Source of the DNA: Alphaproteobacteria bacterium
GTDB lineage: Bacteria; Pseudomonadota; Alphaproteobacteria; RF32; CAG-239
Assembly: GCA_017460085.1 (NCBI GenBank)
Contig: JAFUBQ010000021.1
Location: 9,228-73,227 of the forward strand
DNA: 64,000 nt
Direction: 5' to 3'
Position numbers and translations under genes: made by a program. The notes below the pieces were generated by a model that ran no database searches, was not told the DNA's origin, and was given only the letters and a program-made list of their open reading frames with translations. Positions 22,738 to 41,455 of this stretch are shown one piece after another. Each line of letters opens with the position of its first letter. Positions within the stretch are counted from its first letter, which is position 1.

Positions 22738-25700
22738 TTATTTCTCGGCCATTTTCAGATATCTGTATGCAAGTTTGTTATAAACGCTTGCAGGCATATC
22801 CAAGAATTTGACAGTGGCATAATGCTTGTCAATACCTATTACTTTGCAATGAATAGCTGCCTTAACGTCATCAAACATCAAATTCAATACCTGTTCATCA
22901 CCAAGCTGCCAATTATCCTTATTAACAACAATGGCACTGTCACGCGTTAATTCTATAATTTTTACATTGGTCAACAGTCCGTTGTCTTTCCAAACATCGT
23001 ATTTAGCAACAGATGCTTCCGGCATCACGTATGTATTATAATAACCGTAGTAATCCTTAGCCTTTTGGCGAATTTCTGTTTCTTTCAAGCCTAAACGCAC
23101 GAAACTATTTTCATCGCCGAAGGTATTGACCAATTTATCCCAATCATAATGAACCACCGGTGCCATTGTATGGAATTTGATTTTTTCATCCATATTCAAA
23201 CCGAAACTACCGGTCTTTTGCGTATAAAGCTGAACATTAGACGGCACTAACCGGCGATAATCATTATCCACCACCGCTAAATATCTGTTGCTGTCAATAT
23301 CGCGATTGCCGTTTCTGATTTCGGCATAGTTATTGATATAGCTGTCGTGGATAATTAAATTTGTATCCATCGTGTTGATATAAGCATTGTCAGCATATAA
23401 TGTATTAAACTCAACACCGCGCTCGTCGTCAGCGTAATCATTCATCGAAATGACCGCGTTTTTAGTTTTAAAGCCATAATCACTTATATTATTTTCTTTG
23501 TTTTGGAAACGCGTCGGAATATTGTCAAACGAATACTGTTTTTCATAATCATTGCGCTGTGGATTATTCACCCATTCATTAACGACCTTATCATCAACAC
23601 CGGAAATATTAAGTCTGATAGCTTTACCTTCACCGAAAGTGTTAATTCCTTTTGCTTCGTATACTGTTCCGCTACCGCCGAACTGCGCATCCGAATAAGT
23701 TTTTTGAGTTTGCTTATATCCATTCGGATTATTTTTAGTGGAAACATCAGAATCCGGAGCTTTAGCCGAATTAACATAGATATTATCGGCCATCAATACT
23801 ATATCACTTTGATAATTTTCATCCTGAGTGCCGCGAACCGTCATTGAATAAATTTTCAAATTAGAATCACTGCGTTCCGGTGTATCAACAGCATCTAAAA
23901 CGCTGATATTCACATATTGCGGAACAACACTTTTTTCCGGTGCCGCCGAATCAAAACCGTAAACTAACTCATCGTGCGGATAAAGCATATCAGTAAATGA
24001 GGCAGTATCTTCAGCTGGCATACCTAAATTCATAATCGCCAAATTCTGAGCTTTTTGCATTATTATAAGCTCTTTGTTGGACGTTATTTCCTTGATGGTA
24101 GCATTAGATGTCAAATCTAAATCAATTGCACCGTGCTTAGATATCATTTGATAAATCTTCGTTTCATTGCCCGAATTCGCTTTGCCGCTCATATACAAAT
24201 CGTTCTCCGCTTCCAAGCTGACCGATGATTGCGAATCTGTTGCCGTATTTTGCAGATACGTCAGTTTTTTGCCTTTTTCCCCTATATTGTTGCTGGCAAT
24301 AACGGAAATATTCTGACCGCTGATATTGACATCATTATTATTCGCTGCATTCAATACGGAATATCCAATAAAATATGCCTCATCATCAGGTGTCGGACGA
24401 ACATCAGCTTGTTTCCAATCTGCCGCCGTTAAAATAACATTGCCATCAGTCGTTATATTCTGAACATTTAAATCAGAATCTTTAGCACGCAAGTTAATCA
24501 GACGATTGTCGGTCTTGTCATTGTTAGTCGCTTGCGCATTCACAACTCCGCTAACATTCACATTGACCGAATCCGTCCAATCACGAGTAGACGCATCAAT
24601 CGTAAAGCCAGGACGCGCGTTATCGGTGTATCCGATATCACCGTCCGTTACATTCATTGTCAAATCTCCGTTTGCCGTCAACAAGGTCTTATACGATTGC
24701 TCATTTTTACCCAAATCAGCATTTTGATGCAGGCTGCCAGATGTATCAATAATTCCATTCAAAACATTGCCGTTTTGCTGATTGATAGCAATATTTCCAT
24801 CTGCGGTTTCAACATAGTCATCATTATTGCTTACCAATTCGCCGATTGTTAAATCAGAATCTTTATTTGTTATCACAATATTTTGTTTATCAGCCAAAAC
24901 TTTGCCTTCAACCATTATTCCTTTGGCTCCGGTGTTTGAAATTTCAATATTACCGTCACTGTTATGAATTTGACCGGTTGTGGCAAGTTTCATACCGTCG
25001 GCAGACGTATTGGCAACAGTCGTTTTGCCTTTAGTATTAACGACATTACCAGCAATATTTAATGCACCAGCATTGGAATTTGAAATTTCAAGCTTACCGT
25101 TTGTAACAGACACACTGCCGGTTGTTGTAATATCTAAAGCTCCATTTCCGGAATTTTTAACATTTATATTACCGCTGCCTGAGTGTTCTACTAAACCGGC
25201 AAGTGTAAATTTACTACCATTATTTTCGGCCGTTATATTTCCGCTTTCAAGATTTTTAATTTCAGCGCCGTCTGCAACCGTCAAATCCCCTTTATTATTT
25301 GTAACTGTTGTATTACCTTTAGTATTAGAAACTTTTGCCGTGGCGGTAAATTCAGCACCTTTGGAACCATTGTTGGTAATTGAAATATTACCGTTTTTAT
25401 CGGTGATGCTGCCGGATACGGATATTTTATCACCGGTATTTACCACGGTAATATCACCTTTTTCATCAGTAATATTACCTGTAACATTCAAAATGCCGGC
25501 ATTGGAATTGGTAATTTTCACATTGCCTTCTTTTTCTTCCACATCGCCGTTAACATTCAATGCGCCTGTTCCGGTATTATCAATAGAAACATTTCCGGTA
25601 TTTAATATATTACCCAAAATATCCGTATTGCCAGAGTTTGTATTTATATCAACACTGCCGGCCGAAATTATGGAAGCAATAACATTATCATCTTCATCGG

Positions 25701-39697: not shown

Positions 39698-41455
39698 ATG
39701 ATGAAAAAAAATTTATTTGCAATAACAGTTTGTTTATCTACAATCAGTTCTATATCTTTTGCGCAAACAATGTCGACAGGAGTGCTTCCGCAGCTTGGAA
39801 CGGTGCAACAGCAAGATTTAGACAGTGCTAAACGTTTAGAGCAAGAAAGACAAGGCATCCGCGATTATCAAAATTATAAAGCAAACAAAGCAAAACAAGC
39901 CCAAGAAACTAAAAAAGAAGAAAAAAAGCCGGTTACACAAAAAGCCAAAATATCCGAATATAAAACCAAAGGCATTTACATTGAAAAGTTTGAGGTTGAG
40001 CCGAGTGAAATTTTAACGCGTGATGAAATCGATGCCATTACAATGGATTACGAAAAAACAAACGTTACAGTAGCAAAATTAAATGAAATGATTGACCGTA
40101 TCAATGAAGTCTATCTCGATAAAGGTTTCGTTACGGCACGGGCTTATCTGCCGGAGCAAACCATAGAAAACGGCATTATTAAAATCGGTCTGTTAGAAGG
40201 TAAAGTCGGTGATGTTGAAGTTGAGGGCAATCGCTGGACAAAGAGTTCACATATCAAAAAACGCTTAGGTATGAACAAGGGCGAAATCTTTAATATTCAG
40301 AAATTGGAAGAAAATATGCTCGTTTATAACCGCTATAACAACAATATAGAAATTAAGGGAAATCTGGCTGCCGGTAAAAAAATCGGCACGACAGATGTTA
40401 CGATTAAAGCCGAAGAAAAAGCACCATATCATTTAGCTGCTGTTGCCGATAATGCAGGTCGCAAAACCATCGGTAAAAACCGCGCCGGTTTAATAGCTTC
40501 GCACGACAGTTTATTCGGTTATCGCGATAAGCTCTCCGCCGGTGTTTATGCCAATCGTTATTCGTGGACACCGTTTGTCGATTACAATATTCCGGTTAAT
40601 AAATATGACGGGCGTATCGGCATTTCATTCTCGCACAATGAAGCGGAAATTGGGCATGGCGACTATAAAGACTTCAACATTGAAAGCCGCTCGCAGAACT
40701 ATTCCATTTATTACACACACCCGATTATCCGTGAACTGCACCGTGAATTAAACAGTACAACCTCATTCACTTACAAGCGTGCGGTCACCAGTTTTGATGG
40801 TTATGATTTGTATGAAGATAAAATTCCAGAACTCAAAACCGGATTGAATTTCCGTTATGATACCGAAAACGGTATTTGGTATTTAGCACAAAATATATCT
40901 TATGCCGCACCTTGGTTTCAAAATCGCATAGATTATTGGAAGTTTGAGGGTAGCATTTTGCGCCTTCACGATTTTGGTCATCGTATTTTAGGGCAGTTCC
41001 GCGGCAATTATCAATATATTCCGCAAGATGTAATTCCTTATGCTGACCAGATGTCGGCCGGCGGTTTCGGTACAGTGCGCGGCTATTCGCAAGGTTTGCT
41101 CACCGCAAAATCTGGCTATCAACTCGGTGCGGAAATCTATTTTCCGATTGCACCGGAAAAATTTTATATAAATTGCATACCGTATCGCACTGACGAATAT
41201 GTCCGTCCTTTTGTGTTTACCGATTATGCGGCGCTTTATCCGTATAAAGGCACAGGAAACGGAGCGGAAGGTTTCAACAACAGCGATATTCTGCTCTCGG
41301 CAGGTGCCGGTTTACGCTTTCAACTGCCGTATAATATTGTAGCCAAAGTCGCTTACGGTGTTCCGCTTCGCCATAACAAATATGATACGCATCACGGCGG
41401 TGATTGGAGCTTTGAATTGAGCTTCTCTCCGGATTTTAACAAACTTTTTGAATAG
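39698..41455 (+). CDS. TpsB outer-membrane transporter, ShlB/FhaC/HecB family (POTRA domains plus beta-barrel)
   Basis: Signal peptide MMKKNLFAITVCLSTISSISFA. POTRA-like region (IYIEKFEVEPSEILTRDEIDAITMDY... GFVTARAYLPEQTIENGIIKIGLLEGKVGDVEVEGNRW) and a C-terminal beta-barrel with alternating hydrophobics. Divergent from tpsA. Confidence 0.88.
   Translation: MMKKNLFAITVCLSTISSISFAQTMSTGVLPQLGTVQQQDLDSAKRLEQERQGIRDYQNYKANKAKQAQETKKEEKKPVTQKAKISEYKTKGIYIEKFEVEPSEILTRDEIDAITMDYEKTNVTVAKLNEMIDRINEVYLDKGFVTARAYLPEQTIENGIIKIGLLEGKVGDVEVEGNRWTKSSHIKKRLGMNKGEIFNIQKLEENMLVYNRYNNNIEIKGNLAAGKKIGTTDVTIKAEEKAPYHLAAVADNAGRKTIGKNRAGLIASHDSLFGYRDKLSAGVYANRYSWTPFVDYNIPVNKYDGRIGISFSHNEAEIGHGDYKDFNIESRSQNYSIYYTHPIIRELHRELNSTTSFTYKRAVTSFDGYDLYEDKIPELKTGLNFRYDTENGIWYLAQNISYAAPWFQNRIDYWKFEGSILRLHDFGHRILGQFRGNYQYIPQDVIPYADQMSAGGFGTVRGYSQGLLTAKSGYQLGAEIYFPIAPEKFYINCIPYRTDEYVRPFVFTDYAALYPYKGTGNGAEGFNNSDILLSAGAGLRFQLPYNIVAKVAYGVPLRHNKYDTHHGGDWSFELSFSPDFNKLFE

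Follow-up and report, generated by a model that had tools for sequence, protein, structure and literature searches.

A PilZ-fold domain at the end of the giant exoprotein in a divergent two-partner secretion locus of a rumen alphaproteobacterium

Background

What is the role of the last few hundred residues of a giant secreted filament, and does it mean anything that the genes for the filament and its transporter point away from each other? Both questions are raised by a two-partner secretion (TPS) locus in a 64,000-nucleotide stretch of contig JAFUBQ010000021.1 (assembly GCA_017460085.1), hereafter called the window, from an uncultured rumen alphaproteobacterium. The locus consists of tpsA (22738–39462, minus strand), an uninterrupted open reading frame (ORF) for an exoprotein of 5,574 amino acids (aa), and tpsB (39698–41455, plus strand), a 585-aa ORF for an Omp85-type transporter of the ShlB/FhaC type. 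The original prediction had recognized the secretion pair and had suggested that the C-terminal end of the exoprotein could be a cargo or effector domain. We find that the locus is indeed a type Vb (two-partner) secretion pair, but that its filament belongs to the LktA family and ends in a conserved PilZ-fold domain.

PilZ domains are treated as cytoplasmic receptors of cyclic di-GMP (c-di-GMP). Such a sensor domain is unexpected on an exported protein, since it is normally at work inside cells only. A literature search, incomplete in coverage, returned no description of a fusion between PilZ and TpsA, which is absence of evidence only, and none of the PilZ architectures listed in the comparative review by Galperin and Chou (bioRxiv 10.1101/814665) is a fusion to a secreted adhesin. 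The locus is a variant of the TPS systems of the LktA family, in which the two genes are divergent and the exoprotein ends in a PilZ domain.

Results

The exoprotein ends in a PilZ-fold domain with degenerate c-di-GMP motifs

A search with the last 574 aa of TpsA returned 30 homologs that cover up to 100% of the query, many of them with a precomputed PilZ (PF07238) match. These homologs delimit a conserved C-terminal module of about 600 aa (aa 5001–5574; 22741–24462, minus strand). In an AlphaFold model of the last 300 aa, the first ~170 aa, which belong to this module, are strand-rich and of moderate confidence. They are followed by a linker of about 33 aa (aa 5447–5479; 23026–23124, minus strand), where the predicted local distance difference test score (pLDDT) falls below 50 (model residues 173–210). 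The model ends in a beta-barrel with a C-terminal helix, for which the block-mean pLDDT is 85–94 over model residues 221–290. The original prediction that the last ~300 aa are not beta-helix-like thus stands for the final ~95 aa, a separate globular domain (aa 5480–5574; 22741–23025, minus strand), and not for the strand-rich part before it. The best Foldseek matches of this tail in the PDB are PilZ domains: Alg44 (4RT0/4RT1), 4XRN, PA0012 (8U0I) and MapZ (5XLY), with template modeling scores (TM-scores, taken on the target) of about 0.6, as well as BcsA and YcgR. XC1028 (3DSG) is also among the matches.

The canonical c-di-GMP-binding motifs of PilZ are RxxxR and [D/N]xSxxG. Both are visible in the consensus of the family, which reads KRxxxRF, then about 25 aa, then DISxxGA at the C-terminal end. 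In the alignment, the window tail has EASVAKY where its relatives have KRxxxRF, and ELTRDS where they have DISRGG, so that the key residues are replaced throughout (R to A, R to K, D to E, S to T and G to S). The motifs are similarly degenerate in the closest relatives (P0001–P0004 and P0070). At gathering score, the Pfam PilZ model does not match the window TpsA; it matches 13 of 18 aligned relatives, the best with an E-value of 2e-10.

Despite the motif loss, the window tail is under purifying selection. The ratio of nonsynonymous to synonymous substitution rates (dN/dS) in its codons is 0.09–0.13 against two orthologs, although dS is near saturation and the ratios are therefore approximate. 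By these ratios, the tail is at least as constrained as the upstream body. Its identity to orthologs is 77%, against 74% in the body.

The PilZ tail is a hallmark of a subfamily of exoproteins

When 1.84 billion cluster representatives were searched with a profile built from the last 300 aa, 245 proteins were retrieved at E≤1e-3. Of these, 55 reached E≤1e-30, and in them the match always lay at the extreme C-terminus. About 25 of the proteins found are giants of 3,482–6,412 aa, which carry the whole module. In a second tier of proteins of 900–2,150 aa, only the PilZ part is matched, again at the very end; these mid-size relatives score 29–45 bits with Pfam PilZ (cutoff 22.5). Inspection and BLAST showed that their N-terminus, too, consists of a signal peptide and a TPS domain of the LktA type. 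We assembled a full-length set of 50 representatives (912–6,412 aa) with an N-terminal TPS domain and a PilZ tail. The full signature, RxxxR and [D/N]xSxxG separated by 15–45 aa, is present in 44 of them and lost in six, the window protein included. Binding of c-di-GMP is accordingly predicted for 44 of the 50 relatives and predicted to be absent from the window tail.

The PilZ tail thus characterizes an entire subfamily of exoproteins of the LktA type and is shared by relatives in different phyla. Where source names are given, they point to Gastranaerophilales/Melainabacteria ("Clostridium sp. CAG:967", Candidatus Scatousia, Candidatus Gastranaerophilaceae) and to Alphaproteobacteria. Giant members have a conserved linker of about 55 aa before PilZ. 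In mid-size relatives (P0134, P0137, P0143, P0173 and others), PilZ is immediately preceded by a low-complexity spacer of poly-Asp, DTD-repeat/(DT)n or Pro-rich sequence that is tens to hundreds of residues long (up to ~300 aa). These spacers look more like tethers through a pore than like a filament tip. Their repeats also make long spurious reverse-strand ORFs, which appear to mislead gene callers.

Small stand-alone PilZ proteins of 100–220 aa that resemble the tail are abundant as well, and we considered whether they form a separate class. This was rejected for the loci that we inspected. The "133-aa protein" of locus L033 is the end of an intact 1,432-aa ORF, and its counterpart in L030 is the end of a split gene. 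Many of the short "PilZ proteins", and also of the ~900-aa "homologs", are fragments produced by assembly gaps, frameshifts and gene-calling errors. Broken giant homologs are frequent in assemblies and account for such ~900-aa fragments: L001 contains a gap of Ns (~9880–9990), L023 an in-frame TAA where the window has Leu (9950–9965) and L024 a frameshift (~9830). These breaks may represent true pseudogenes, phase variants or assembly errors. A different case is P0015 (L002, 10001–12844), a 947-aa ORF that consists only of the C-terminal module with a canonical PilZ domain, without a signal peptide. Upstream of it lies noncoding DNA, and its neighbor is an unrelated gene for 3,619 aa. P0015 appears to be a genuine remnant, although it may also be a cytoplasmic protein that is expressed on its own.

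TpsA is an LktA-type filament exported by Sec

We next turn to the other end of the exoprotein. TpsA begins with a signal peptide (aa 1–41, ending in TPALAS; 39340–39462, minus strand), which was recognized by a Kyte-Doolittle value of 1.81 at aa 18–36 and by an AlphaFold helix at aa 6–33. It is the only transmembrane-like hydrophobic stretch in the whole protein according to the Kyte-Doolittle scan. A stop-transfer segment that would leave PilZ in the cytoplasm was considered and rejected, as there is no transmembrane helix outside the signal peptide. The TPS secretion domain follows at aa 53–206 (38845–39306, minus strand). It matches NCBIfam NF012204 ("leukotoxin LktA family filamentous adhesin") with 146.6 bits (cutoff 60, E-value 5e-43) and contains the FxxPxG motif of the family as FVSPNG at aa 120–125. 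The 53-aa tandem repeats of NF012206 were found in 11 stretches (158.9 bits, cutoff 50). An AlphaFold model of aa 1–330 has a pLDDT of 84, and above 90 over aa 41–215. Its ten best Foldseek matches in the PDB are all TPS domains, including those of HxuA (4I84), EtpA (8CPK), FHA (1RWR), HMW1 (2ODL) and HpmA (3FY3), with TM-scores that are low (0.3–0.5).

Haemagg_act (PF05860), the Pfam model for TPS domains of the FhaB/HMW1/ShlA type, does not match TpsA even at E≤10, and TIGR01901 reaches 20.1 bits, below its cutoff of 29.1. A phmmer search with the N-terminal 350 aa against PDB sequences returned no solved TPS domain, and Pfam on the whole protein, in three overlapping pieces and with the ends searched at E≤10, gave no adhesin, toxin or PilZ match. 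There is no Pfam model for the LktA-type secretion domain, and standard Pfam annotation therefore misses this architecture. Because it combines the TPS fold with a signal peptide as its only transmembrane-like segment, TpsA is a Sec-exported TPS-type filament. It is of the LktA kind and not FhaB- or CdiA-like, and the original prediction has to be corrected or completed in this respect.

Behind the conserved secretion domain, the body of the filament is mosaic or hypervariable. Among close relatives (loci L005, L006, L007 and L018 compared with the window), the first 300 aa are 75–80% identical, and identity drops to 28–38% over the next 900 aa in L005, L006 and L007. L018 is 97% identical to the window over the 121 aa that it covers (aa 301–421). 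One lineage-specific insert (aa 1231–1800; 34063–35772, minus strand) consists of about a dozen Tyr-rich, acidic repeats of ~50 aa with the pattern NKPxGM..Y..L...GYSDEEI..YQGMIDGG.T.EE. It is found only in the window TpsA and in its ortholog P0070, and a search with the repeat region returned no further homologs. The repeats are probably helical and match only weakly to UBA, DUF7626 and CPSase_L_D3. Further on there is a Lys/Glu-rich central segment (aa 3781–4180; 26923–28122, minus strand) with BLASTP matches in at least 20 giant relatives and, judged by eye, a coiled-coil character. Tandem Repeats Finder detected no DNA-level repeats in tpsA; the repeat copies have diverged in DNA.

The transporter

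By its sequence, the product of the 585-aa ORF is a bona fide TpsB. It scores above cutoff with the Pfam models ShlB (81.8 bits), POTRA_2 (66.8 bits) and POTRA (30.4 bits), and its closest solved relative by sequence is a CdiB (6WIM, E-value 1.5e-14). Besides a signal peptide and two POTRA domains, it contains the VRGY motif of loop 6, visible in the sequence as GTVRGY. Related transporters with 72–92% identity, from 18 loci, all come from metagenome-assembled genomes (MAGs) of uncultured rumen Alphaproteobacteria (roe deer, yak, sheep and cattle). We also noticed a run of eight A residues (39704–39711) in codons 3–5 of tpsB (MMKKN), which may be prone to slippage or may merely reflect Lys codons in an AT-rich genome.

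A conserved divergent arrangement with a homopolymer between predicted promoter elements

The original prediction had described divergent genes that share a 235-bp control region with a homopolymer, and this was borne out. Partner genes of TPS systems are neighbors that are mostly transcribed together; tpsA and tpsB are adjacent, separated by 39463–39697, and because they are divergent they cannot be co-transcribed. The arrangement is not peculiar to the window. Sixteen related rumen loci extend far enough upstream to be compared, and in every one of them the opposite strand encodes the N-terminus of TpsA, 170–350 bp upstream of tpsB. The divergent pair also occurs in two distant loci, L025 (P0045, 5,448 aa) and L027 (P0071, 5,634 aa), both with a canonical PilZ tail. 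Since it is kept in these loci, and in contrast to the co-directional lkt operon, the divergent layout is a conserved trait of the subfamily and not a local rearrangement. In L027 (2915–5781) the divergent tpsB is followed by a gene for an Skp/OmpH chaperone, and L025 (635–4683) has a second tpsB paralog alongside the divergent one. Of the two observations that the original prediction had named as speaking against it, a divergent layout in orthologous loci was indeed made, but the C-terminus does not match an ordinary FHA-type domain.

The homopolymer is a C8 tract at 39581–39588, or a poly-G tract in the reading direction of tpsA. The whole window contains just one other G/C homopolymer of at least 6 nt. 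In an alignment of five close loci, the tract is kept at the same position while its flanks diverge, and its length differs: C8 in the window, C9 in L005, C10 in L006, C7 in L007 and C6 in L018. It is absent from more distant orthologous loci. A consensus scan predicted a promoter-like site for tpsA at 39575–39603 (minus strand), TTGACT-17 nt-TAGTAT, in which the spacer consists of 9 nt and the G8 run, so that the tract falls inside the spacer between the -35 and -10 elements. The -35-like GTCAA (TTGAC on the tpsA strand) is invariant in the five loci. A separate promoter-like site is predicted for tpsB at 39637–39665 (plus strand), TTGAAA-17 nt-TAATGT, of which the TTG of the -35 element and A2 and T6 of the -10 element are invariant in the same alignment. 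A search of the 235-bp region with Rfam at E≤1 found no family. By analogy with known spacer homopolymers, tpsA, and not tpsB, is probably subject to promoter-spacer phase variation, and the tract is a candidate phase switch.

The only other G/C homopolymer of this length in the window is a G9 tract at 59793–59801. Its layout, AAAAATAC-TTGACT-TTTGTCTATC-G9-TAAATA, is the same as that of the tpsA promoter, in general form AAAAATAC-TTGACT-TTTGTCT...Gn-TAAATA. The tract lies 36 nt upstream of a 179-aa ORF (59838–60377, plus strand) in a prophage-like region, and the sequence TTGACTTTTGTCT is identical to the tpsA promoter of L018. The two tracts may represent a recurring phase-variable promoter cassette.

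Genomic surroundings

The next gene 3' of tpsA (22298–22708, minus strand) encodes a Cupin_2 protein with a signal-peptide-like N-terminus, as originally described, and no small immunity ORF follows tpsA. We considered the cupin as an immunity or partner protein and rejected this because of its signal peptide and its lack of synteny in relatives, where unrelated genes lie downstream of the tpsA orthologs. An lktC-like gene was not seen at the window locus. Between the cupin gene and a low-GC stretch of short ORFs (16–20 kb), there is a dihydroorotate-dehydrogenase-like ORF (21347–22123, minus strand) whose alignment to the 291-position profile starts only at position 87. It seems to lack its N-terminal part and may be a pseudogene or carry a frameshift. 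A 1,359-aa ORF at 10982–15061 (minus strand) has no Pfam match at E≤0.001.

Prophage-like genes, small lysis-cassette-like ORFs among them, begin directly downstream of tpsB and occupy 41500–48400 and beyond. They include an IS110-family transposase (42571–43578), a large ORF that by eye resembles a tail protein (45607–47937) and a further ORF at 47838–48398. The GC content of this region is 44–49%, compared with 37–39% in the TPS locus.

A PAS-GGDEF diguanylate cyclase is encoded at 6184–7842 (plus strand; Pfam GGDEF, E-value 2.7e-44). As its GGEEF motif is intact, the host has c-di-GMP signaling and makes c-di-GMP, although its own TpsA tail has lost the binding residues. A scan of the whole window with Rfam, with gathering scores as cutoffs, gave no match to any RNA family, riboswitches for c-di-GMP or other ligands included.

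Discussion

A possible role for the PilZ tail

What could a PilZ domain do at the end of an exported filament? In relatives, the binding residues are kept almost universally, which argues that the tail meets c-di-GMP, that is, in the cytoplasm. If TpsA is exported through Sec with its N-terminus first, the PilZ tail is the last part to be translocated. The C-terminal parts of other TpsA proteins (FhaB, CdrA, ExlA) control retention and release, and for this reason we propose that the PilZ tail acts as a stopper, retained inside, for the last step of export or release, which in the window protein would be independent of a ligand. To this explanation, the best overall, we give an even chance of being correct. 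The POTRA domains of TpsB, the product of the divergent gene, would receive the TPS domain, and folding of the filament would take place outside the cell. The PilZ domain, last made and last exported, would fold on the inner side and, by stopping or retaining the filament, keep it cell-bound, a function analogous to that of the FhaB prodomain or the C-terminal hook of CdrA. In relatives with canonical motifs, the stopper would depend on c-di-GMP, since a fold stabilized by its ligand in the cytoplasm could resist translocation. In the window lineage it would be independent of the ligand or bind a protein partner instead. The window tail has lost the motifs and follows a short linker, and it is therefore more likely to plug TpsB from the periplasmic side without a ligand, or to bind a protein. 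With separate promoters for the two genes, the poly-G tract would make filament production phase-variable while the transporter stays on.

Several points weigh against this proposal. The stopper role was deduced from the position of the tail, its fold and analogy only. c-di-GMP is not known from outside the cytoplasm, and Sec does not translocate folded domains; a c-di-GMP-dependent stopper must therefore stall in or before SecYEG, which would be unprecedented and potentially harmful. The linker of the window protein (~33–50 aa) could span the TpsB pore, not the whole envelope. The C-terminal end of mature Bordetella FHA is thought to be distal from the cell, and the tail of TpsA could likewise end up at the tip of the filament. 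As the window TpsA lacks the binding motifs, the link to c-di-GMP does not apply to it directly. With regard to the phase switch, the differences in tract length lie between MAG species and not within one population, and homopolymer lengths in assemblies can be wrong.

In the main rival explanation, secretion of the PilZ-fold tail is complete and the tail forms the distal tip of the filament, where it would bind a surface, a protein, extracellular nucleotides or the extracellular DNA of a biofilm instead of acting in retention. As in the FHA model, the C-terminus of a TPS filament can be exposed at the end that points away from the cell. Purifying selection without c-di-GMP motifs would fit a binding role unrelated to cytoplasmic signaling, and some PilZ-fold proteins, such as XC1028, work by protein-protein contact without c-di-GMP. 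However, conservation of the exact c-di-GMP-binding residues in 44 of the 50 relatives is hard to explain without contact to c-di-GMP, and the long unstructured acidic or Pro-rich spacers are more tether- than tip-like, so that we consider a tip domain possible but unlikely. The same conserved motifs imply a cytoplasmic encounter with c-di-GMP and would also fit a tail that acts only before export, as a checkpoint on the nascent chain that, for example, recruits or blocks SecA or chaperones and is later exported or clipped. The loss of the motifs in the window clade would then mark a decaying remnant. We find this doubtful: the tail is translated last, presumably minutes after export of the 5,574-aa chain begins, and would come too late to gate its start, and a dN/dS of about 0.1 speaks against decay. 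Direct gating of the last secretion step by c-di-GMP is improbable to a similar degree. Here the tail, having bound c-di-GMP in the cytoplasm, would be too stable to unfold for translocation, the acidic or Pro-rich spacer would tether the finished filament across the envelope, falling c-di-GMP would let the tail unfold and set the filament free, and the window lineage would be a fixed, ligand-independent derivative.

That the C-terminus is a cargo or toxin for delivery, as in contact-dependent inhibition, was the suggestion of the original prediction, and a giant TpsA with a distinct C-terminal domain would be in line with it. This now seems highly improbable. A VENN motif, already noted as missing, or other pretoxin motif is absent from TpsA, and the downstream gene encodes a cupin with a signal peptide that is not conserved beside orthologs. 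The tail is not polymorphic but no more variable than the body, the same domain occurs in different phyla, and we know of no enzymatic or toxic activity of the PilZ fold. As for the control region, the divergent orientation and the homopolymer could be devoid of regulatory meaning, a neutral arrangement with a chance run: promoter-like sites are consensus matches in AT-rich DNA, and the tract is absent from more distant loci. Against this stand the orientation, kept in all testable loci and two distant lineages, the rarity of such runs in the window, the constant position of a tract of 6 to 10 nt between diverging flanks and exactly in the spacer of the predicted promoter, and the same promoter layout at the only other run. 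We therefore regard a neutral arrangement, too, as rather improbable. Our preferred reading of the tail remains the retained stopper.

Whatever its exact role, PilZ is the conserved last domain of dozens of filaments of ~900 to 6,400 aa that are exported by Sec and TPS, in gut Gastranaerophilales-like bacteria and in rumen Alphaproteobacteria. If the tail senses c-di-GMP, it would offer a direct route for controlling the retention or release of a TPS adhesin, whereas in the cases known so far such control is indirect (CdrA) or lacks an explanation (ExlA). The window TpsA is a natural "motif-dead" variant and as such a useful control, but of lower direct relevance to c-di-GMP signaling. In addition, the locus provides a clean candidate case of phase variation by a promoter spacer, from a rumen lineage that is uncultured.

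Comparison with known systems

The closest known counterpart is LktB/LktA of Fusobacterium necrophorum. The exoproteins share the N-terminal domain family (NF012204) and the 53-aa repeats (NF012206), and LktB is a POTRA_2/ShlB-type transporter like TpsB (PMC11350119). There, a single promoter serves lktB, lktA and lktC, which are arranged as one co-directional operon (PMC11350119), whereas tpsB and tpsA are divergent, with a cupin gene downstream, and the host is an alphaproteobacterium instead of a Fusobacterium. TpsA is longer than LktA (5,574 aa) and has a PilZ-fold end; the comparison with LktA covers the N-terminal domain and the repeats. CdiA/CdiB also combine a giant TpsA with a TpsB, to which the window transporter is closest by sequence among solved structures, but the window locus lacks the VENN motif, the polymorphic C-terminal toxin and the immunity gene.

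Phase-variable promoters with a homopolymer in the spacer are found at Neisseria porA and opc (poly-G) and at Bordetella fim (poly-C). The predicted tpsA promoter likewise has a G/C homopolymer in the spacer of its -35-like and -10-like hexamers, with a length that varies between the window and its relatives; in comparison with those systems, it is only a candidate switch, as the variation lies between MAG species.

Bordetella FhaB/FhaC is likewise a type Vb system with a giant beta-helical filament. The C-terminal prodomain of FhaB, which is retained on the inner side of the outer membrane, governs maturation and release, and we propose it as the functional analogue of the PilZ tail. FhaB and TpsA show no relationship in sequence, and their ends differ in size, the window tail being a PilZ barrel of 95 aa and the FhaB prodomain comprising ~1,200 aa. 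CdrA/CdrB with LapD/LapG and ExlA/ExlB, both of Pseudomonas aeruginosa, are also TPS systems in which c-di-GMP governs the retention or release of the exoprotein. CdrA is held in CdrB by a C-terminal hook and cut by LapG under indirect c-di-GMP control, while release of ExlA is controlled by c-di-GMP by an unknown route (PMC8472254). For CdrA, c-di-GMP acts via the inner-membrane receptor LapD and the protease LapG. In the PilZ-tailed family, the receptor domain is instead fused to the exoprotein itself, although the window copy lacks the binding residues.

Finally, PilZ domains couple c-di-GMP to polymer export in Alg44 and BcsA. The fold is shared with the TpsA tail, and the Alg44 structures are among its best matches. 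There, PilZ belongs to the export machine and lies in the cytoplasm; in the window locus it forms the end of the exported substrate, a protein with a Sec signal peptide and no transmembrane anchor.

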